Positions 29,539-61,413 of a stretch of 64,000 nucleotides of DNA are shown here, piece by piece. The notes below the pieces were generated by a model. That model had not been told where the DNA came from. It did not search any database and saw only the letters and a list, made by a program, of their open reading frames with translations. Source of the stretch: Methanobacteriota archaeon. Its GTDB lineage: Archaea; Thermoplasmatota; Thermoplasmata; SG8-5; JAGLSY01. Both the position numbers and the translations under genes were made by a program. The number at the start of each line of letters is the position of its first letter. The stretch's first letter is position 1. The stretch covers positions 128,001-192,000 of the forward strand of contig JAEHCQ010000004.1 of NCBI GenBank assembly GCA_020696385.1, in the 5' to 3' direction.

Positions 29539-29629
29539 AATACCCAGTATGCAACAGATAAATAATATACTTTTCTCCTATGGGTATTTAATTGTTTTCA
29601 TGTTTGAAAACAATTAACAATATTAAAAG

Positions 29630-29747
29630 TGCCCGAACCGGAATTCGAATCCGGGTCAAAAGCTCCGCAAGCTTTCAGGATATCCTTTGTAGGAACAACA
29701 GAGAGGTGTGTGACACCGAACTGATGCTCAAGCTACCCCATTCGGGC
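29630..29747 (-). tRNA. tRNA-Arg(GCG) with a 44-nt intron in the D-loop (about 29687-29730)
   Basis: GCCCGAA/TTCGGGC acceptor stem, AAAGC-TTGCGGA-GCTTT anticodon arm, CCGGA-TTCGAAT-TCCGG T arm; insertion between GGGTAGCT and AGGATATCC. Confidence 0.9.
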
Positions 29748-29832
29748 GTAATGAATCATCCCAAAGTTAATACCACACAATCTTTATATTTTTGGATATA
29801 GAGTGATTGTGGTTAGCTTTGGTTGATTTCAA

Positions 29833-29909
29833 TAAGGGCTCACTATCCTCAGTTCATCTTTTCAGATTAACTGAGAGGATACCCACGGCTGAAGCCGGGG
29901 GAGCCCTCA
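29833..29909. repeat. Intergenic repeat family 3, copy 2 (IS200/IS605-end-like hairpin)
   Basis: TAAGGGCTC...CCCACGGCTGAAGCCGGGG-GAGCCCTCA. Confidence 0.65.
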
Positions 29910-30005
29910 TTGGCCTTGAAATGCGAACCTGTTTATGAATGTTTGTGCGGTTCATCGTATCCAGACATGATATTCCTACATGTCTGTTTGGCAGTATCGA
30001 CCTCA

Positions 30006-30485
30006 TCAACCCAGCTTATTTCGTGTATATGCCAGCAATCCACCAGCATCCCTGATAGCCAGTATCTCTTTGGGCAGAAGAGGGAAATTGAATTTTTGGC
30101 CGTCGATGATTATCTCGCCGGCGTCAATGTCCATCTTCACCTCAGCACCTTCTTTGTAGGCCTGTACCGCTTCCGGGCACTCGATGAGCACCAGTCCTTG
30201 ATTGATGGCCGCCCTGTAGAATATTCTGGCATAGCCCTCTGCTACAATGGCCTTGATGCCGATGGCCTTGAATCCAACTGTTGGCTGTTCACGACTTGAG
30301 CCACATCCGAAGTTTCGGCCGGCGAATATTATGTCGCCAGATTTCGCACCCTTGGCAAAATCTGGATCCAGGTCTTCCAGCATATGCGGCAGTATCTCCT
30401 CCGCGGTGCCGCAAGTGTAGGTGTACTTGCCCGGGAATAGCATATCGGTGTTCACGCTGTCTCCGTATTTCCAAACCTTGGTCAT
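30006..30485 (-). CDS. Isopropylmalate/homoaconitate dehydratase small subunit (LeuD/HacB family)
   Basis: GDSVNTD..FPGKY, GRNFGCGSSRE, ARIFYR, GGLL. Confidence 0.92.
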   Translation of the reverse strand: MTKVWKYGDSVNTDMLFPGKYTYTCGTAEEILPHMLEDLDPDFAKGAKSGDIIFAGRNFGCGSSREQPTVGFKAIGIKAIVAEGYARIFYRAAINQGLVLIECPEAVQAYKEGAEVKMDIDAGEIIIDGQKFNFPLLPKEILAIRDAGGLLAYTRNKLG

Positions 30486-52651: not shown

Positions 52652-53368
52652 ATGACCGGGGGAAAAGTGGAGCAGGCAGTGGTCCTATGCGGGGGACTTG
52701 GAACCAGGCTTCAGTCGGTTTCCAAGGACATTCCAAAATCCATGATGCCCATTGACGACCGCCCATTTCTCGAGATACTGGTGTCACAGTTCAAGAACCA
52801 TGGCATCACGCGTTTTCTTTTCCTCACAAGTCATCTTCACGAGATCATTGAGGAACACTTTGGGGACGGTTCCTCCTTCGATGTCACTATCGAATATTCC
52901 ACCGAGCCAGAGCCCATGGGAACAGGTGGTGCATTGGAACTTGCCAAGGACAAGTTGGATGCTGTGTTCTTCCTGGTCAATGGAGACACCATCTTGCCAA
53001 TCGATCCCACCATGCTCATTGCCGGATTTTATAGACAGAAATGCCTCGGATTCGTCACAGTATATGACAATAATGAGAAAATTGCAGATAAGAATATCAT
53101 AATAGACAATAAGGGCCAGATACTGCTCTACACCAAGCTGACATCCCTTCCTGAAATGACAGGAGTGGAAGCTGGCATGTCTGTTCTGGATAAGAAGGTG
53201 CTTAATATCTGCAAGAAGGAGAGTTATTCTCTGGAAATGGAAGTTTTCCCGAAATTAATAAATAATGGCCGTCTCTTTGGTTTATTAACGAGCCAGCGTT
53301 TCTACGACATTGGAACACCTGAAAGGCTGGAACTTGCAAGGAGTGTATTGAATGACCTTGGTTGGTAG
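52652..53368 (+). CDS. hddC: Sugar-phosphate nucleotidyltransferase (HddC-like)
   Basis: LCGGLGTRL, PK, EPEPMGTGG, NGDT, FYDIGTPE; operon context. Confidence 0.8.
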   Translation: MTGGKVEQAVVLCGGLGTRLQSVSKDIPKSMMPIDDRPFLEILVSQFKNHGITRFLFLTSHLHEIIEEHFGDGSSFDVTIEYSTEPEPMGTGGALELAKDKLDAVFFLVNGDTILPIDPTMLIAGFYRQKCLGFVTVYDNNEKIADKNIIIDNKGQILLYTKLTSLPEMTGVEAGMSVLDKKVLNICKKESYSLEMEVFPKLINNGRLFGLLTSQRFYDIGTPERLELARSVLNDLGW

Positions 53369-54359
53369 AGCACCGGTTAGAATAAGTTTCGGGGGCGGAG
53401 GAACGGACCTGGCTTCTTATTACAAGAAGCACGGCGGAGTCGTGGTCAGCGCGGCCATAAACAAGTATTTTTACACAATTCTGGAACTCAGGCAGGATGA
53501 GCGTATCCAGATAATCTCTTCAGACTTGCAGCTCAATCACACAGTGGAGGATTGCTACAGCCTGAAGTATGGTGAAGGACTGGACATTCCGGTCGGTGTA
53601 CTGAAGCACATGCATGTCCGCAGAGGCATGAACCTTCTTATGGCATCCGAGATACCGCCAGGCACTGGCCTTGGATCCTCGGGAGCAGTTACGGTCAATA
53701 TAATCAATACGATCAACCATCTTGAACATCTGAAGATGACCAAGAAAGAGCTAGCGGAGATGGCATACCACATAGAATACAATGAACTGGGTCTGCCCAT
53801 CGGCAAGCAGGATGAATATGCATCTGCTTTTGGAGGACTTAATTTCATCACATTTGACAGGTCTGGTGACACCACGGTCGAGCCTCTCAGTGTTCCAAAG
53901 GAAGTGCGCATGAGGATGGAGGATGACATCATGCTCTTCTTCACTGGCAGAACACGCCAATCATCCAAGATATTGAAGAGCCAGGATTCTTCAACCAAAG
54001 ATGATACTGGTGAAGTTGTCGAACGACTTCACGAGATCAAGGATATCGCTTTTAAAGTCAAAAAAGCGATAGAGGTAGGCGACCTGACTGAGATGGGTCA
54101 CCTTCTTGATATGAGCTGGCAGAATAAGAAGAAGCTGGCAAAAGGCATCAGCAATCCACGCATAAACAAGATATACGATATCGCGAAGAAAGAAGGAGCC
54201 GTGGGTGGTAAGCTGACCGGAGCCGGAGGCGGAGGATACATGATGCTCTTCTGCCACAAGAAACACCAACCAGCAGTTAAAAAAGCAATGGTGAAGGAAG
54301 GACTTTCATTGCTTGATTTCAAGTTCGACCACAAGGGTGCGAAGACCATGTTGGGATAA
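53352..54359 (+). CDS. hddA: D-glycero-alpha-D-manno-heptose-7-phosphate kinase (GHMP family)
   Basis: RAPVRISFGGGGTD, PPGTGLGSSG, GKQDEY..AFGG, KLTGAGGGG. Confidence 0.88.
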   Translation: MTLVGRAPVRISFGGGGTDLASYYKKHGGVVVSAAINKYFYTILELRQDERIQIISSDLQLNHTVEDCYSLKYGEGLDIPVGVLKHMHVRRGMNLLMASEIPPGTGLGSSGAVTVNIINTINHLEHLKMTKKELAEMAYHIEYNELGLPIGKQDEYASAFGGLNFITFDRSGDTTVEPLSVPKEVRMRMEDDIMLFFTGRTRQSSKILKSQDSSTKDDTGEVVERLHEIKDIAFKVKKAIEVGDLTEMGHLLDMSWQNKKKLAKGISNPRINKIYDIAKKEGAVGGKLTGAGGGGYMMLFCHKKHQPAVKKAMVKEGLSLLDFKFDHKGAKTMLG

Positions 54360-54451
54360 ATTATCTATATCGGGATAATCAATCCATGACGGGGTAATCT
54401 ATAACTATCACATTGAGAATAATAGTAGGGTGAAACAGGGGACATGATGAC

Positions 54452-55042
54452 ATGGACGAATTCAGAAAGAATTTCATTGATGGATATTTGAAAGACGTGA
54501 TAGACTGCCTGGAGGATTACAGGAAGAACCCGGAGTTCTTCGACGAACTGGCGACCATATTCCTAGATGCCAGGAAGCGAGGCAATATTGTATATTTCAT
54601 GGGGAATGGCGGAAGCGCGGCAACAGCCAATCATTTTGTATGCGACCTTGGCAAGGGCACGATCGTGGAAGGATATCCAAGGTTCAAAGTTTTATCATTA
54701 TCGGATAATATACCGATGATGCTGGCATGGGGAAATGATGCTTGTTATGAGGATATATTTGTCGAGCAGTTGAAGAACTTGATGAATCCCGGGGATGTCA
54801 TAGTCGGTATAAGTGGCAGCGGAAACTCTGGCAATGTTCTCAGAGCCATTGATTGGGCGAATGAGAATGGTGGAATAACCGTCGGCCTCACAGGTTTTTC
54901 AGGTGGTAAATTGAAGGACATGGCCAAGCACGTGTTGGTCGTTCCAATTCACTACATGCAGAAGATCGAAGATATCCACATGCTGGTCGATCACCTGGTC
55001 ACATCCCTTATCCGTGAAGAGGAGATGGCCAACCTTGAGTAA
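54452..55042 (+). CDS. gmhA: Phosphoheptose isomerase (SIS domain)
   Basis: GNGGSAA.A.H, ND..YEDIFVEQL, ISGSGNS.NV, ED.H. Confidence 0.88.
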   Translation: MDEFRKNFIDGYLKDVIDCLEDYRKNPEFFDELATIFLDARKRGNIVYFMGNGGSAATANHFVCDLGKGTIVEGYPRFKVLSLSDNIPMMLAWGNDACYEDIFVEQLKNLMNPGDVIVGISGSGNSGNVLRAIDWANENGGITVGLTGFSGGKLKDMAKHVLVVPIHYMQKIEDIHMLVDHLVTSLIREEEMANLE

Positions 55043-55532
55043 GAACAGGGCGGTATTCCTGGATCGTGACGGAGTCATCAATCGCCTGCACATGGGCAAG
55101 TACGTGACCAAGTGGGAAGAATTTGAATTCCTGGAAGGTGCATTGGATGCGGTGACCGCACTGGCAGCCAGTGATTTTAAAATAATTGTAATTACGAATC
55201 AATCCGCGATCAACCGCGGATTCATAACCGAGTATGAGCTGGAAGTGATCCACGAGCACATGACCGACAGCATTGAGAAGGCTGGCGGCCGAATTGATTC
55301 CATATACCACTGCCCGCACGCCCCGCATGAGGAATGTACCTGCCGAAAGCCGGAGCCTGGGATGTTCGAAAAGGCGATAGGGAATCATGATATCGATGTG
55401 ACCGGATCATGGTTCATCGGAGACTTCCAGAGTGATGAGGAAGCCGCCGCGAGAGTTGGCCTGAAATTCAAGCTGGCTGAGGGTGATGGCGGACTGAGAA
55501 GGGCGGTTGATGAGATATTGAATTCTAAATAA
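55035..55532 (+). CDS. gmhB: Heptose-1,7-bisphosphate phosphatase (HAD)
   Basis: FLDRDGVIN, ITNQS, CPH.....C.CRKP.PGM, IGD. Confidence 0.9.
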   Translation: MSKNRAVFLDRDGVINRLHMGKYVTKWEEFEFLEGALDAVTALAASDFKIIVITNQSAINRGFITEYELEVIHEHMTDSIEKAGGRIDSIYHCPHAPHEECTCRKPEPGMFEKAIGNHDIDVTGSWFIGDFQSDEEAAARVGLKFKLAEGDGGLRRAVDEILNSK

Positions 55533-55688: not shown

Positions 55689-55950
55689 AGATTTTGGCTG
55701 AATCCTAATCGTTCTCCCGCCAGGCTCCGCCCCCTCCACGAATATTAAATGAATGTACCCACCCACTGGATACTTGCTTTTTGCCTTATATCGACCACGA
55801 GTTTATATATCATAATCATTTTGTGGATTTGACTCAAATAGTCAGTATATCACAATAGCCCTAAGGTGTGAAGACGGAGCCCAATAACGAAACAAATGGA
55901 AAAGCTCCTTACTTTACACCACAAGGCGCTGATGAATCAATAAACAGAAT

Positions 55951-56024
55951 AGCCTCGTGGTGTAATGGCAGCACAGGAGGTCTTGCACCTCCAGGCATCA
56001 GTTCGACTCTGATCGAGGCAACCA
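55951..56024 (+). tRNA. Atypical tRNA-Gln(UUG)-like RNA with encoded CCA
   Basis: Full cloverleaf: GCCTCG/CGAGGC, GTGT/GCAC, GGAGG-TCTTGCA-CCTCC, ATCAG-TTCGACT-CTGAT, ACCA; A1:A72 mismatch, C33, C37. Confidence 0.85.
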
Positions 56025-56048
56025 AACTAACCAGTAAAAAGTGAGGAA

Positions 56049-57872
56049 ATGATAGACCCCAAGAACATCGACTACAGGAAACTGGGCTTCAAAGCGGGCC
56101 TCGAGATACACCATCAGCTCAAGTCTTCTCGAAAGTTATTCTGCCACTGTCCAGCCGAGTTATCGGCCGATCTGCAGAAGAACCCGGACTTCACTTTTCA
56201 CAGACGCTTCCGAGCCGTGATGGGCGAGATGGGGGACTTCGACCCAGGTATGCTGGTCGAAGTTGAAAAGGGCTATCTGGTCATCTACCATGCGAATGAT
56301 GCCCATGTGTGCACTTACGAGATGGACGATACACCGCCATTCTGGCTGGACATGGAATCTGTGGATACGGGCTATAAGCTTGCCAGTCTTTTCAATTGCG
56401 AGTCGCCAGCCGAGGAAGTTGTCATAAATCGTAAGCAGTACTTGGATGGTTCGATAACCACTGGTTTCCAGCGCACGATGATAATCGCCAGGGACGGCCA
56501 TGTGCAATTGGCCAGTGGCAGGAAGATCACTATCACCAATATCCTTATCGAAGAAGATTCGGCCAGGAAGATCAAGGTCGAGGATCGCGGTCGAACCGTT
56601 TATTACAATCTGGATCGGCTGGGTGTTCCACTTACAGAGATAATAACAGATCACAATGAGATTGACACGCCGGAGCTTCTGATCGAGGCCATAAAGATGA
56701 TCGCCCTCAATTTGAGATTGACTGGTCTGGGTCGTCGCGGTATCGGTGTCGGCAGGCAGGATGTGAATATCTCGATCGATGGTGGTGACAGGGCGGAATT
56801 AAAGGGAGTTCAGGATCTTTCCTTAATGACAAAGTTCTGCGCCCACGAGGTATGCAGGCAACATACGCTTATCGATATTCAATCTCAACTTGCCAGCTCG
56901 AACCTGAAGAAGGAAGAGTTCGAGCATAATTACATCGATATTACACACTTATTCAATGATCTGGGTGAAGGAGAATCAGCCTTCGCGGTTAGGCTACCCG
57001 GTTTTGAGGAAATTCTCAAAACCGAGGTTCAGCCAGGCAAGGACTTTGGATATGAGATCTTCGAGAAATGCAATTTGATCACAGGTGTCCAGTACGACGA
57101 AATGTTCCATTCGGGCGAGATGAGCCCGGGATCCATTCGCATGATGAACAGGTCGGATGATCTTTTCATCAATAAGGGACAGGATGGCGAAATTCGTGCT
57201 ATTCTGAAACTGGAAGATGGAGATGGATACGTAGCTGCCAGGGGTAGTGAGAAACCAGTTCTCCACACTCTGAAAAAGACAGTAGAAAGATGCAAGCAGG
57301 CCTTCGATGGCGTGCCCCAGGAGACCAGGCGAGTACTACCAAATGGCAATAACGAGTTCCTGCGTGTGATCCATGGAAAAGGCCGGCTTTATCCGGACAC
57401 GGACACGCCACCAGCTCCCTACCCGATGGAGAAATTCCAGGCGATAAAGGAAAAGGGCTGGACAAGACCATTGGACCTTCTCGAAAAGTACCAGGAGAAG
57501 GGATTGAAATTGCCCATGCTGGAACTTCTTATCCGTGATGAGAAGATACCAATGTTCCAAAAGTTGGTGGATGAGGTCAAGGTCCCAACCTCTCTGGCTA
57601 TCCGATTGACTGTGGAAATTCCCCGGTGGCTGAGGAGGAAAGGATATGATCCAGAGATTATCAGCCAATTTTCGATCATCAGCATTGCTGGCAATATCAT
57701 GTCAGGCAAGCTCCAGGCAAAGCATCTTCGCCCAATGATGAAGGAGATATGCATTGCCCCCAAGGAGAACCAGAGTTCGATAGTTACCAAGTGGGTGGAT
57801 CAGAACAATAAAAAGGATGAACCGGGCGATGTAAAGGACCAATGGCCAGATGATGGGAGGTGTTGTAAGTGA
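56049..57872 (+). CDS. gatE: Glu-tRNA(Gln) amidotransferase subunit E, divergent
   Basis: GLEIHHQL...KLFC.CP, GFQRT, EED, LDRLGVPL.EI, RQDVNISI, ELKGVQ, YPDTD.P. Confidence 0.9.
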   Translation: MIDPKNIDYRKLGFKAGLEIHHQLKSSRKLFCHCPAELSADLQKNPDFTFHRRFRAVMGEMGDFDPGMLVEVEKGYLVIYHANDAHVCTYEMDDTPPFWLDMESVDTGYKLASLFNCESPAEEVVINRKQYLDGSITTGFQRTMIIARDGHVQLASGRKITITNILIEEDSARKIKVEDRGRTVYYNLDRLGVPLTEIITDHNEIDTPELLIEAIKMIALNLRLTGLGRRGIGVGRQDVNISIDGGDRAELKGVQDLSLMTKFCAHEVCRQHTLIDIQSQLASSNLKKEEFEHNYIDITHLFNDLGEGESAFAVRLPGFEEILKTEVQPGKDFGYEIFEKCNLITGVQYDEMFHSGEMSPGSIRMMNRSDDLFINKGQDGEIRAILKLEDGDGYVAARGSEKPVLHTLKKTVERCKQAFDGVPQETRRVLPNGNNEFLRVIHGKGRLYPDTDTPPAPYPMEKFQAIKEKGWTRPLDLLEKYQEKGLKLPMLELLIRDEKIPMFQKLVDEVKVPTSLAIRLTVEIPRWLRRKGYDPEIISQFSIISIAGNIMSGKLQAKHLRPMMKEICIAPKENQSSIVTKWVDQNNKKDEPGDVKDQWPDDGRCCK

Positions 57873-59272
57873 GCGAAGAATACCAGCCACCAGATGGTTA
57901 CAGAGGCCCGCTCCTCCAACGCCTGGTAGAAGCCAAGATACGCACATGGTCAGTCATCCAGGTGAATAAAACGGACGGATCACATTACGAAGGTGTGCTT
58001 CTGCCACGTTCCATCCACACATCTGATGATTATCTTTCTATAAAGGTGGATACTGGCTACAATATCGGTATCCAGCTTCCCGACGATGCCACGATAAAAG
58101 AGGTCGGGTACAATGCGGGCTCTTATCAAATTCCAGAGAAGATCGTGGAGAAAACACCCGGGCTTCCGAATGTCACGCTCCTGGGCACAGGTGGGACAGT
58201 GGCCAGTCGTCTTGATTATAGAACCGGAGCCGTACTACCGGCATTCACTCCATCCGAGCTTTTCTCCGCAGTCCCAGAGCTTATCGACATCTGCAATTTA
58301 ACTCCAAAGACCCTTTACCAGATCCTTTCCGAGAACTTCTGCCCCGAATACTGGATAAAAACAGCCGAAGCGGTCGCCAAGGAGATCGAGGGCGGAGCGG
58401 ATGGTGTGATAATCGGTCATGGCACCGACACAATGAGCTATTCTGGCTCGGCACTTTCATACATGTTCCAGGACCTTCCAGTTCCAGTGGTCATCGTGGG
58501 CTCTCAGAGAAGCAGTGATCGACCATCCAGTGACGGACCCATCAATATGATGAACGCCACCACATTGGCCGCCTATGGCGACTTGGCAGAAGTGGTCGTC
58601 GTCATGCACGGAACCACGAGCGACAATTACGATCTTATCCACCGTGCCACCAGGGTGCGCAAGATGCACAGTGCGCGGAGAGATACTTTCCGCACTGTGA
58701 GTGATACTCCATTGGGTCAGATCAAGGATAAGGAGATCAAATACTTCAAGGATGATATCAGACGCCGCAGTCCAAAAGAGGACTTCCATCTGAATACCAA
58801 GATGGACGAGCGCGTCACAATGCTCTACTTCTACCCAGGCATGGAGCCAGATGTCATGCACGCGGTTCTGGACAAGGGCTATCATGGCATTGTCATGATC
58901 GGTACTGGCCTTGGGCATGTTGGCAAGCCCATGTATGAAGCATTGGACAGAGCGCAGGAAGAAGAAATTCCCGTGGTCATCGTCGTCCAGCCAATGTTTG
59001 GATTCTCACATCTCAGAGTTTACGAAACAGGTCGTGACATGCTGGCCAGAGGCGTGATAGAGGGCAAGAACATGCTTCCCGAGGCAGCACTTCCAAAACT
59101 CATGTGGGCACTTGGCCAGACACAGGATGTGAAAGAAGTGGAAAAGATCATGCACACCAATCTGGCCGGCGAGATCACCAATCGGGAACCATACTCCGGC
59201 TTCCCGATATTCCAGGGTGGTGTTCCGAACTTCTATGATAATTATAAGAATATCGATAGGCTGAAAAAGTAA
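57869..59272 (+). CDS. gatD: Glu-tRNA(Gln) amidotransferase subunit D
   Basis: N-terminal G.LLP..K.DTGYNIG domain; TGGTVASRLDY, HGTDTM, GSQRSSDRPSSD, RKMHS. Confidence 0.93.
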   Translation: MSEEYQPPDGYRGPLLQRLVEAKIRTWSVIQVNKTDGSHYEGVLLPRSIHTSDDYLSIKVDTGYNIGIQLPDDATIKEVGYNAGSYQIPEKIVEKTPGLPNVTLLGTGGTVASRLDYRTGAVLPAFTPSELFSAVPELIDICNLTPKTLYQILSENFCPEYWIKTAEAVAKEIEGGADGVIIGHGTDTMSYSGSALSYMFQDLPVPVVIVGSQRSSDRPSSDGPINMMNATTLAAYGDLAEVVVVMHGTTSDNYDLIHRATRVRKMHSARRDTFRTVSDTPLGQIKDKEIKYFKDDIRRRSPKEDFHLNTKMDERVTMLYFYPGMEPDVMHAVLDKGYHGIVMIGTGLGHVGKPMYEALDRAQEEEIPVVIVVQPMFGFSHLRVYETGRDMLARGVIEGKNMLPEAALPKLMWALGQTQDVKEVEKIMHTNLAGEITNREPYSGFPIFQGGVPNFYDNYKNIDRLKK

Positions 59273-59584: not shown

Positions 59585-60655
59585 ATGATGGATCTCTATG
59601 AGCTCGTTGAAAGTATCGTCGTCATGTTAATTGGCTGGATCGACCAGTGGGTCCCAGATCAATTAGCCTTTCTGATATCACCCACCAGCATACATGCTTA
59701 CGTGGTATTGGGAATGGCCGCCGTGATACTGGTTATATGTCTTTTGAATGTCGTCGTAATGATATGGATAGAACGAAAGTTCATCGCCAGGCTGATGGAT
59801 CGCCGAGGTCCGACAGAAGTTGGTTTCATGGGTTTTCTTCAGAATGTGGCTGATGGTCTGAAGCTCTTTCTCAAAGAGGTCATCACGCCCCAGGGTGTCG
59901 ATCGCTGGGTCTATGTCATGGCCCTCGTGCTGTACATCGGTTCCTCCATCACCGTTTTGGCCCTTGTCCCAATGAGTGACAGGTTCTTCATGGCAAATGT
60001 CGAAGGCGGACTTTTCATGATCTTCGCCATATTCACTCTGGCTCCCTTTTTCATATTCATTGCTGGCTGGTCGCAGAATAACAAATACTCCCTGATCGGA
60101 GGAATGCGTTCAGCTGCCCAGATGATCAGCTACGAAATACCACTTATGCTATCCGTTATAGGTGTGATATTGATGGCTGGCTCCCTGAGCATATCCGAGA
60201 TAGTCAATGCCCAGAGCAGTATCTGGTTCATCATTCCTTCATTCATCGGATTCTTTGTCTTCATAATCGGTGTGTTGGCTGAAGTCGAAAGAATTCCTTT
60301 TGATCTTCCAGAGGCCGAGGCCGAGCTTGTAGAAGGCTGGACCACAGAATATGGTAGTATCAGATTCGGTCTGATTATGTTCGTCGCCTATCTTCGTGGC
60401 TATGTCGGTTGTGCACTGGCGGTCTTCCTCTTTTTCGGAGGTTGGCTCGGTGGTCCTTTCAGCGCCTACATGCCACCAGAGGCCTGGTTCTTGATCAAGG
60501 TGTACATCCTCTTCATGATCCTCGTCTGGCTTAGAGCATCAGCACCAAGGATAAGGATCGATCAGTTGATCCAGATCGGCTGGAAGAGGTTATTACCTTT
60601 GGCCATGCTCAATATAATGATCGCAGTATTCCTTTCAGCAATGGGGTGGATCTAA
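59585..60655 (+). CDS. nuoH: NADH-quinone oxidoreductase-like subunit H
   Basis: ERK..AR..DRRGP, ADGLKL..KE, NKYSLIGGMR..AQMISYE, PFDLPEAEAELV.G. Confidence 0.95.
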   Translation: MMDLYELVESIVVMLIGWIDQWVPDQLAFLISPTSIHAYVVLGMAAVILVICLLNVVVMIWIERKFIARLMDRRGPTEVGFMGFLQNVADGLKLFLKEVITPQGVDRWVYVMALVLYIGSSITVLALVPMSDRFFMANVEGGLFMIFAIFTLAPFFIFIAGWSQNNKYSLIGGMRSAAQMISYEIPLMLSVIGVILMAGSLSISEIVNAQSSIWFIIPSFIGFFVFIIGVLAEVERIPFDLPEAEAELVEGWTTEYGSIRFGLIMFVAYLRGYVGCALAVFLFFGGWLGGPFSAYMPPEAWFLIKVYILFMILVWLRASAPRIRIDQLIQIGWKRLLPLAMLNIMIAVFLSAMGWI

Positions 60656-61413
60656 TGACACAGGTAAGAATAAGAACATCATCTGACAGACCCGACACCA
60701 GGGATCCCGGATTTACCACTGGTGTATCTGGATTGATCAAGCTTGTTGTGAAACCAATGGGAGTTTCTATGAAGCAATTCTTGAAAAGCTTCAAGCGCCC
60801 AACCACCCTGATGTATCCGAAGGAAAAGCCAGATGCTCAGGTGGAACTGAAACCTGAGCACAGATTCGGTGTCGAGGGGTGCTGGGAATTCTTCAGAGGC
60901 TGTCATGGCCTGGATGAAGACCTGTGTGTGAGCTGCGGGCTCTGTGAAAGGATATGCCCCAATAATTGTATCACACTGGTCGAGTACGAGGGAAGGAAGC
61001 TTCCACAGGTGGATCAGAGCCGTTGTATGTTCTGCACCCTGTGTGTGGAGATCTGTCCGAAGGACGCACTCGGAATGACCCATGAATTTGATATTTCAGG
61101 ATTCACAAGGGAAGAGCTTCTATCAACCACTGCGGACCTAATCGCCAGGAAGGGCACAATGGCTAGACCGATCCTACCTGCGAAGATCATCGCATTTCCG
61201 GCCATAGACTTGGAAGGATGTATCGGTTGCGCGAAGTGCGCGAAGGAATGTCCACCAGGAGCCTTGGAGATGTATGAACCCGAGGGCCAGGTAGTGGCAG
61301 AGGGCAAGAAACCAAAGAAGAAACCAAGGCTCAACATAGCGATATGCGTTTCATGTGGTATTTGTGAATCGCAATGTCCAAAAGACGTTATAGAGATGAA
61401 GGAGGGAAATTGA
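60655..61413 (+). CDS. nuoI: NuoI-like subunit with four [4Fe-4S] motifs
   Basis: T..YP, FRG.H, four CxxCxxCxxxCP. Confidence 0.88.
   Translation: MTQVRIRTSSDRPDTRDPGFTTGVSGLIKLVVKPMGVSMKQFLKSFKRPTTLMYPKEKPDAQVELKPEHRFGVEGCWEFFRGCHGLDEDLCVSCGLCERICPNNCITLVEYEGRKLPQVDQSRCMFCTLCVEICPKDALGMTHEFDISGFTREELLSTTADLIARKGTMARPILPAKIIAFPAIDLEGCIGCAKCAKECPPGALEMYEPEGQVVAEGKKPKKKPRLNIAICVSCGICESQCPKDVIEMKEGN

Follow-up and report, generated by a model that had tools for sequence, protein, structure and literature searches.

The window analysed here is a 64,000-nucleotide stretch of contig JAEHCQ010000004.1 (assembly GCA_020696385.1, positions 128,001 to 192,000) from an archaeon of the class Thermoplasmata, whose genome (G000) is assembled into 50 contigs totalling 2.28 Mb and is 94% complete. 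Directly upstream of gatE and gatD, which encode the tRNA-dependent amidotransferase GatDE, it harbors a third, non-canonical transfer RNA (tRNA) for glutamine; for this gatE-linked tRNA and its copies in related genomes we use the label tRNA-Gln*. The tRNA is conserved, its stems covary, and it is linked to one clade of gatE genes; where it directly adjoins gatE, the product has lost the end of its C-terminal tail. Both amidotransferase genes evolve under purifying selection in a genome that also contains a glutaminyl-tRNA synthetase (GlnRS) and canonical tRNA-Gln genes. The explanation that we favor, and to which we give an even chance, is that tRNA-Gln* is a trans-acting paralog of tRNA-Gln dedicated to this GatDE and shaped for recognition by the enzyme over decoding, a reading drawn from sequence comparison.

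Structure, conservation and distribution of tRNA-Gln*

The gene was identified as tRNA-Gln(ttg) by ARAGORN and scored 47.2 bits on the Rfam tRNA family (RF00005; gathering score 29, E-value 7.6e-9), which bears out the complete 74-nucleotide cloverleaf with an encoded CCA, 24 nucleotides before the gatE ATG, described in an initial annotation of this DNA. The acceptor stem reads AGCCUCG/CGAGGCA, with A1 facing A72 (positions 55951 and 56020), and the anticodon loop is U32 C33 U34 U35 G36 C37 A38 (55981-55987), with the anticodon UUG at 55983-55985. In G000 the variable region has 4 nucleotides and the T loop is UUCGACU. The 3' end consists of A73 followed by CCA (56022-56024), which is encoded only in the copies of G000 and G002; other copies read A-U-C(A). 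The D loop, AAUGGCA, comprises 7 nucleotides; that of canonical tRNA-Gln has 8, and the tRNA-Glu of G000 have D loops of 9-11. G18G19 in the D loop and UUCGA in the T loop, elements that form the elbow of the L-shaped tRNA, are both present, and columns G17 G18 and T52-A56 are invariant in alignment A3, which contains the eight distinct tRNA-Gln* sequences. The initial annotation had listed C33, C37, the A1.A72 mismatch and A15/C48 as oddities of this tRNA. The first three are evident in the sequence, whereas A15/C48 varies among the other copies in A3 and is not a conserved feature.

Each copy in A3 forms 20 of the 21 cloverleaf pairs, and ten pairs have changes on both sides. The covariation score of the alignment was matched by none of 500 shuffles, and sliding the register reduced pairing to 28-46%. 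Position 1:72 is A.A in all eight copies, whereas the remaining stem pairs are 100% formed. The anticodon arm breaks the canonical elongator rule (U33, purine 37, pyrimidine 32) through C33/C37 in four copies and a purine at 32 in three. Positions 32 and 38 form a Watson-Crick pair in every copy, of four different types (U-A in four copies, G-C in two, A-U and C-G in one each); at 33:37, half of the copies have U-A and the other half C.C. The loop UCUUGCA is common to G000, G002, G001 and SG8-5/L058; the remaining loops are CUCUGAG, GUUUGAC (two copies) and AUCUGAU, and a purine 32 with G-C or A-U closure occurs in the copies of G018, L057 and G004. The anticodon is YUG (Y, pyrimidine) in 8/8 copies, UG at 35-36 being invariant and position 34 being U or C.

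Canonical tRNA-Gln genes present another picture. All 37 of the order have A1:U72 and A73, and the loop is YU-YUG-GA in the 32 that our loop parser resolved; of the five unparsed, two have introns and three a stem mismatch, and four of them show the same loops by eye, the loop of G001/L108 being interrupted by an intron. ARAGORN detected the canonical tRNA-Gln genes of G000 on contigs C22 (UUG) and C33 (CUG), both with A1-U72 and the loop C-U-YUG-G-A, and both isoacceptors are likewise present in G001, G002 and G018. Within G000, 34 of the 35 intron-less tRNAs found by ARAGORN have U33 and a purine 37, tRNA-Gln* being the sole exception, and each of the 43 tRNAs that could be parsed cleanly carries a pyrimidine at 32.

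We searched 41 related genomes with the GatE protein. The close relatives are Thermoplasmata archaea, including 'Candidatus Proteinoplasmatales archaeon SG8-5', and most of the related genomes are incomplete metagenome-assembled genomes, in which absence means 'not found'. The search separated a close clade with 64-93% identity (G000-G004, G017 and G018) from all others, at 31-41%. ARAGORN placed a tRNA directly upstream of gatE in six of the seven loci that hold the start of the focal gatE; in the seventh, SG8-5, tRNA-Gln* lies 1.77 kb upstream. No linked tRNA was found by ARAGORN in 22 loci of other GatE groups. Metagenome contigs provided a further adjacent case (L057), an SG8-5-like locus (L058) and a locus without tRNA-Gln* (L059). 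The distance from the tRNA to gatE is 24-53 nucleotides in seven loci (G000, G002, G001, G003, G018, G004 and L057), and a search with filters off found no tRNA-Gln* near gatE in L056, L059, three Asgard loci, L060 or L061. A covariance model of the tRNA-Gln* copies (R1) scored at least 85 bits in exactly seven of the 22 genomes of the order, those with the focal gatE. In a class-wide sample of 151 genomes it did so in six, each of which belongs to the focal clade, the next best score being 75.7 bits. Thus, other tRNA-Gln genes exist in G000 and homologous loci carry a linked atypical tRNA, the two points on which the initial annotation had made its proposal depend.

The best matches of R1 outside the focal clade are the 71-nucleotide tRNA-Gln of other GlnRS-bearing Thermoplasmata families. 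These have the same short D loop, 4-nucleotide variable region and T loop as tRNA-Gln*, but A1-U72 and a normal anticodon loop; their discriminator base is G73 or A73. Judging from these resemblances, tRNA-Gln* is best regarded as a derived member of a normal tRNA-Gln lineage. Its import together with an Asgard-type gatE-gatD pair is unsupported, the tRNA-Gln of Hodarchaeota being canonical (A1-U72, normal loops). The 71-nucleotide form was found at loci L120-L127, L130 and L131 (genomes G023, G061, G070, G079, G127, G133, G049 and G086), and in G023 it sits 355 nucleotides upstream of GlnRS. Several genomes with this form carry a G73 discriminator, the identity base of bacterial GlnRS, and the comparison suggests that the 71-nucleotide type adapted to an imported GlnRS.

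The GatDE enzyme and the direct route to glutaminyl-tRNA

GatE scored 138.5 bits on PF02934 (against 23.4) and 351.4 bits on TIGR00134 (cut-off 319.55; profile positions 2-554 of 622); on a second equivalog model, NF003107, its score of 417.1 lies below the cut-off of 456. It aligns to 1zq1_C only to residue 559 of 633. An AlphaFold2 model of GatE (predicted local distance difference test, pLDDT, 82; predicted template modelling score, pTM, 0.82) gave 1zq1_C as best Foldseek match (E-value 8.3e-42, target-normalized TM-score, TMt, 0.79) and also matched 2d6f_D (E-value 6.0e-38). As modelled, the protein has the fold composed of a cradle, an insertion like that of aspartyl-tRNA synthetase (AspRS) and a helical domain. 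GatD scored 510.3 bits on NF003217 (cut-off 310) and 504.2 bits on a second family model (cut-off 324; TIGR02153/NF003217 test), contains the Pfam domains Asparaginase, Asparaginase_C and GatD_N, and is 98% identical in amino acids to its G002 counterpart. Between G000 and G002 the ratio of nonsynonymous to synonymous substitution rates (dN/dS) is 0.09 for gatE and 0.028 for gatD, at a dS of 0.4-0.5; both genes are under strong purifying selection. Taken with the predicted fold of GatE and its invariant catalytic-region motifs, these ratios indicate that the amidotransferase is probably functional.

The motifs YEMD.TPP, KQYLDGSITTGFQRT and RVIHGK.RLYPDTDTPP are invariant or nearly so in 44 GatE sequences from Asgard archaea, Bathyarchaeia and the focal clade. 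The initial annotation had read the motifs of GatE as altered; they mark a subtype and are not specific to this locus. Some 27 clusters of a large protein collection share at least 58% identity with the focal GatE, and the next tier, at 49-55%, consists of Heimdall-, Hod-, Odin- and Thorarchaeota and Bathyarchaeia. A quick maximum-likelihood search with IQ-TREE (leaving out the fragments L007, L029, L030 and L061, L006 as a duplicate of L058, and the short L012) gave the focal clade a long stem (1.02) and made Hodarchaeota GatE its sister group (support 98), whereas two other GatE groups of Thermoplasmata branched elsewhere. The order gatE-gatD is found in the focal clade and in Hodarchaeota, versus gatD-gatE in 14/14 ordinary Thermoplasmata loci, so the gene order noted in the initial annotation is real. 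Several Thermoplasmata genomes have two distant GatE paralogs (L008-L029; G005, G008, G022, G027, G029, G031 and G036): in group Y, gatD and gatE lie on the same strand in this order, whereas group X has either a divergent gatD or none in the vicinity. Some group X proteins are without the usual C-terminal motif, and the X and Y paralogs often co-occur with GlnRS.

In G000, the helical part of GatE continues to about residue 587, residues 589-607 are predicted to be disordered by AlphaFold2, and the last ~45 residues, which form the terminal bundle, are missing. The proposal that GatE lacks its YqeY-like tail is therefore correct for these last residues and not for the helical part, which remains. 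The protein ends at 595-610 amino acids without these residues in G000, G002, G001, G003, G018 and L057 and in the C-terminal piece from G004, whereas SG8-5/L058, L056, L059 and Asgard GatE keep them. No hit of PF02637, the YqeY-like tail, was found in G000 GatE and the other short forms; long members of the clade carry it. The tail is truncated in all seven loci with an adjacent tRNA, and the three full-length types (SG8-5/L058, L056 and L059) are without one. GatD has an N-terminal extension specific to the clade (window 57869-57950) with the motif E-E-Y-x-P-P-D-G-Y-R-G in G000, G001, G003, G018 and SG8-5; this motif is not in Hodarchaeota GatD.

G000 contains two full-length genes of the glutamyl- and glutaminyl-tRNA synthetase (GlxRS) family, one for an archaeal glutamyl-tRNA synthetase (GluRS; NF003169, 714 bits) and one for a GlnRS, which scored 698.2 bits on TIGR00440 (cut-off 425.8) over positions 1-524 of 524. 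In the collection searched with GatE, the proteins closest to the latter (65-70% identity) come partly from bacteria and partly from Thermoplasmata, and GlnRS exceeds the TIGR00440 cut-off in 19 of the 41 related genomes, including 14 of the 22 of the order. A tRNA-Gln gene usually lies within a few kb of GlnRS in related Thermoplasmata. A second GlnRS-like fragment, in two frames with 119.8 and 61.6 bits on PF00749, occupies contig C16 of G000 (716 bases) and probably either represents a strain variant or was left over from assembly. According to the portions available of PMC9499178 and PMC8762117, archaea lack, or almost always lack, GlnRS; our literature search, by phrase and more broadly but with subscription journals uncovered, found no paper describing an archaeal GlnRS. 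Because a bacterial-type GlnRS is present, GatDE is dispensable for the charging of ordinary tRNA-Gln. No second gatE or gatD was found in G000 by tblastn or with PF02934, an absence that the completeness of the genome leaves unproven, and G001 and G002 each gave a single GatE match. The suspicion of the initial annotation that this GatDE is the paralog of a canonical one is thus unsupported. What stands of that interpretation is an atypical and conserved tRNA linked to an unusual gatE-gatD pair, in a genome whose GlnRS lay outside the DNA that was annotated.

Transcription and surroundings of the locus

The features of the locus are listed in Table 1. The promoter-like block is invariant in G000, G002 and G001 amid otherwise diverged upstream DNA. 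It is likely the start of the tRNA-gatE-gatD transcript, a role that we assign from the archaeal TATA consensus. The hairpin between this block and the tRNA begins with a repeat of the tRNA-Gln* start, AAUAGCCC; its stem persists in G002 despite a loop deletion, and in G001 it is a short minihelix resembling an acceptor stem. The hairpin is probably what is left of a tRNA copy once arranged in tandem. Within the spacer between tRNA and gatE, AAAAAGTGAG is conserved in G000, G002 and G001.

Table 1. Positions of the tRNA-gatE-gatD features in the window and of the GlnRS gene elsewhere in G000.
Feature	Position	Strand	Description
Promoter-like element	55793..55809	+	BRE-like (transcription factor B recognition element) GACCACGAG and TATA box TTTATATA (TATA 55802-55809); invariant block in G000/G002/G001
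Leader hairpin	55853..55934	+	Between promoter and tRNA; minimum free energy -28.4 kcal/mol, z -5.25, 0/200 shuffles as stable
tRNA-Gln*	55951..56024	+	74-nt third, non-canonical tRNA-Gln; ARAGORN tRNA-Gln(ttg)
Spacer tRNA-gatE	56025..56048	+	24 nt; purine-rich Shine-Dalgarno-like AGUGAGG at 56040-56046
gatE	56049..57872	+	607 aa, Asgard/Bathyarchaeia-type, ATG at 56049; truncated YqeY-like tail
gatD	57869..59272	+	467 aa, asparaginase-type amidase subunit; GTG start overlaps gatE stop (GTGA)
GlnRS	G000 contig C33:75019-76596 (locus L031 817-2514)	-	Bacterial-type, full length; on a large contig; adjoins canonical archaeal tRNA-Gln(CUG) and tRNA-Thr; outside window

No TATA-like sequence was found in the spacers between tRNA and gatE of the seven adjacent loci. 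Since these spacers are short and devoid of such a sequence, we infer that the tRNA is co-transcribed with gatE and gatD in all seven. A TTAAATA box precedes tRNA-Gln* by 40 nucleotides in G018, G004 and SG8-5 and by 39 in L057. In SG8-5/L058 the tRNA is preceded at -40 by a TATA-like box of its own and followed by a T-run, and glnA, on the opposite strand, separates it from gatE. Because of this box, the T-run, the intervening glnA and the 1.77 kb that separate it from gatE, the tRNA of SG8-5/L058 appears to be a gene in its own right. A cis-acting leader operator always lies in the 5' leader of the gene that it regulates, and the SG8-5/L058 tRNA does not. This free-standing copy, about 1.8 kb away, weakens the suggestion of the initial annotation that a tRNA mimic in the gatE leader serves autoregulation.

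Among the compared loci, no functional neighborhood beyond tRNA-gatE-gatD is shared; glnA, purF-like and Kae1/TsaD genes occur in some only. A divergent glutamine synthetase gene of 488-503 amino acids lies directly upstream of gatE in L051 (801-2312, minus strand), L058 (1335-2846, minus strand) and L059 (632-2098, minus strand). A gene for a purF-like glutamine amidotransferase lies upstream in L057, and Kae1/TsaD is found nearby in L058. In the window, positions 53352-55532 contain GHMP kinase-like, SIS isomerase-like and HAD phosphatase-like genes that, by eye from their translations, have the look of a heptose-phosphate pathway, and nuoH- and nuoI-like genes lie downstream, at 59585-61413. 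These heptose-like and nuo-like neighbors are shared by members of the genus only. With introns allowed, ARAGORN also called a tRNA-Thr(ggt) with a 357-nucleotide intron on the minus strand at window positions 29629-30075 (contig C44 of G000, 157629-158075). There are ten further intron-bearing tRNA calls in G000, one with a 605-nucleotide intron, and some of these may be false.

Possible roles of tRNA-Gln*

Recognition of tRNA-Gln by the enzymes of both routes has been described. In the parts of PMC2811023 available, what GatDE recognizes in its substrate is the first base pair together with the D loop, which must be small and without the extra base of tRNA-Glu; the tail domain of GatB/GatE seems to take part in recognizing the D loop, and tRNA binding requires the GatB tail. 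The D loop of tRNA-Gln* is small and without this extra base, and the A1-U72 pair of archaeal GatDE substrates is replaced by A.A in all of its copies. In the E. coli complex, GlnRS makes the anticodon stem longer by pairing 32 with 38 and 33 with 37, as reported in the accessible section of PMC1483225. An excerpt of PMC2978374 adds that the unpairing loop of GlnRS breaks U1:A72 and that archaeal GluRS shares the beta-barrel anticodon domain. By analogy, the opening at 1:72 and the extended anticodon stem of tRNA-Gln* may correspond to the two distortions that GlxRS enzymes impose on tRNA-Gln. The bases flanking the anticodon change freely as an extension of the stem while YUG is fixed, the pattern expected if a synthetase and not the ribosome reads the anticodon.

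In the proposed role of a tRNA dedicated to GatDE, the tRNA-Gln* of G000 would be transcribed with gatE and gatD from one promoter and released by RNase P and RNase Z. The single archaeal GluRS would glutamylate it, GatE would phosphorylate the resulting Glu-tRNA-Gln*, and GatD would supply the ammonia that yields Gln-tRNA-Gln*, while GlnRS would charge the two canonical tRNA-Gln for bulk translation. The open 1:72 and the stem lengthened by 32:38, and in half of the copies also by 33:37, would pre-shape tRNA-Gln* for GlxRS and the amidotransferase. YUG would be the sole invariant part of a fast-changing anticodon arm because GluRS reads it. At loci with the tRNA next to gatE, GatE is without the terminal bundle, normally the reader of the D loop, which fits a specificity shifted to a private tRNA. 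The charging enzyme, the action of GatDE on tRNA-Gln* and the use of the product are as we infer them from comparison of the genes.

Several points weigh against this proposal. Four of the seven genomes with the module (G003, G004, G017 and G018; 70-83% complete) yielded no GlnRS, and in these GatDE might be the sole route to Gln-tRNA and serve ordinary tRNA-Gln too. The tRNA-Gln(CUG) that neighbors GlnRS in relatives was also not found in G003, G004 and G017, which suggests that a single unassembled locus explains both gaps in these three genomes. L056 and L059 have the focal GatDE and yet no tRNA-Gln* in their available flanks; G041, the genome behind L056, is uninformative, as not one tRNA-Gln was detected in it. 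Since the nearest relatives of tRNA-Gln* are tRNA-Gln of GlnRS-bearing families, GlnRS rather than GluRS may bind it. U33 and A37 are kept in four of the eight copies (G003, G018, L057 and G004), which could still decode. U32-A38 is frequent in ordinary tRNAs of G000 (11 others), so that 32:38 complementarity alone is not abnormal; what is abnormal in tRNA-Gln* is the covariation of 32:38, the purine-32 forms and C33/C37. The two glnA genes of G000 mean that the pathway is not needed for glutamine supply, and for the same reason we rejected tRNA-dependent synthesis as the only source of glutamine. Finally, we know of no process outside translation that consumes Gln-tRNA, which leaves a non-decoding product without an identified sink.

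A further-reaching version, which we regard as possible but rather doubtful, sees in tRNA-Gln* a tRNA that does not decode and is fixed in the shape that it would have on a synthetase, its first pair open and its extended anticodon stem exposing YUG alone, and that acts as dedicated carrier or sensor for a GatDE that the arrival of GlnRS freed from translation. If true, this would be the first archaeal module of a tRNA and an amidotransferase outside bulk protein synthesis, for example one that reports or buffers amide-nitrogen status; in sister lineages its neighbors include glnA and a purF-like gene.

It seems unlikely to us that tRNA-Gln* is instead a regulatory tRNA-like RNA that binds GluRS, GlnRS or GatDE, charged or not, and tunes activity or reports glutamine or nitrogen status; in G000 it may then also control gatE-gatD via processing of the shared transcript. 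An open 1:72 with an extended anticodon stem would mimic the GlnRS-bound state, in no copy does the anticodon arm follow the rules for decoding, co-transcription with gatE without room for a separate promoter is likely at seven loci, and a structured, probably tRNA-derived hairpin also stands in the leader. The position of glnA (between tRNA and gatE in SG8-5 and L058, beside gatE in L059) and the purF-like gene upstream in L057 would suit such a role, for which the tRNA-like mascRNA (MALAT1-associated small cytoplasmic RNA), said in the part available of PMC9976931 to bind GlnRS uncharged, offers a precedent. However, a full cloverleaf with an A73 acceptor end, G18G19 and the T loop exceeds the needs of a binding decoy, and the RNA retains the anticodon identity and six of the seven acceptor pairs of a tRNA-Gln that can be charged. 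Moreover, the SG8-5 RNA lies outside the gatE leader, and the glnA and purF neighbors occur in few related loci and not in G000.

Equally improbable in our judgment is an ordinary third tRNA-Gln isoacceptor that merely shares the gatE-gatD operon, its oddities being tolerated or corrected by modification, with a non-discriminating GluRS (ND-GluRS) and GatDE serving all tRNA-Gln redundantly with GlnRS. The glutamine anticodon and full tRNA architecture of all copies, U33 and A37 in half of them, and descent from the normal 71-nucleotide lineage are what such a tRNA would display; GlnRS is moreover undetected in four of the seven module genomes and common alongside other GatE types in the class. 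Against this, C33 with a pyrimidine 37 is unique among the 35 tRNAs of G000 and yet fixed in G000, G002, G001 and SG8-5/L058, and positions 32, 33, 37 and 38 vary freely, to the point of purine-32 closures in G018, L057 and G004, while the loops of canonical tRNA-Gln are frozen across the order. A.A is likewise fixed at 1:72, against A-U in 37/37 canonical copies, and both canonical isoacceptors already exist in G000, G001, G002 and G018.

A decaying pseudogene or an assembly artefact upstream of gatE, which the several broken near-universal tRNA rules and the degenerate tRNA-like hairpin nearby, itself a sign that tRNA copies decay there, might suggest, is effectively refuted: the same features recur in eight independently assembled sequences with up to ~36% GatE divergence, compensatory changes keep the stem pairs while the mismatch is invariant, the fold is intact at the G000-G002 dS given above, and high scores of R1 are limited to genomes with the focal gatE, which together exclude sequencing error and simple decay, as the initial annotation had argued from the intact stems.

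The module resembles several known systems. The canonical archaeal pathway (ND-GluRS and GatDE of Methanothermobacter and Pyrococcus; 2D6F, 1ZQ1) has the same GatE and GatD families and folds and a substrate that likewise has a glutamine anticodon and A at position 1. It differs in that here there are also a GlnRS, an extra tRNA paralog with A.A for A1-U72 and a non-standard anticodon arm, the order gatE-gatD, a tRNA in the operon and a GatE without the terminal tail bundle. Non-proteinogenic tRNA-Gly of staphylococci, which serve cell wall synthesis, are likewise extra paralogs that keep synthetase identity, with changes thought to avoid the ribosome or elongation factor; they feed Fem transferases, whereas no Gln-tRNA consumer is identified here. 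Partition of one tRNA-Gln to a specialized branch within the indirect route is also described, in the available parts of PMC9976931 and PMC2978374, for Helicobacter pylori (GluRS2/tRNA-Gln) and Acidithiobacillus (GluRS1/GluRS2). In these bacteria it is the synthetase that has been duplicated, and the tRNA decodes normally; in our case the duplicated and altered component is the tRNA, and only one GluRS was found. In Deinococcus, Thermus and Bdellovibrio an indirect pathway (GatCAB) is similarly kept beside direct asparaginyl-tRNA synthetase (AsnRS) or GlnRS, according to the text accessible of PMC4206432; it makes asparagine on a normal tRNA-Asn, whereas G000 encodes glutamine synthetase and the tRNA concerned is a separate, unusual copy. 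Finally, mascRNA and the tRNA-mimicking operators of synthetase mRNAs, as covered by the portion available of PMC9976931, are tRNA-like RNAs that also associate with the cognate enzyme or its mRNA. They are without a proper anticodon loop or chargeable end, whereas tRNA-Gln* has the complete cloverleaf, ends in A73 (followed in G000 by CCA) and stands by itself as a gene in SG8-5.

A small group of sediment archaea thus combines a direct GlnRS with a retained indirect GatDE that has its own odd tRNA, a natural experiment in separating direct and indirect aminoacylation within a single cell. The tRNA and its enzyme may also represent an orthogonal pair of natural origin. The proposed dedication of tRNA-Gln* to GatDE predicts that the A.A mismatch replaces A1-U72 as recognition signal, that the private tRNA compensates for the loss of the GatE tail, and that the extended anticodon stem favors GlxRS over ribosome binding. 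If tRNA-Gln* does not decode, a tRNA-dependent amidotransferase would gain a function outside bulk translation.

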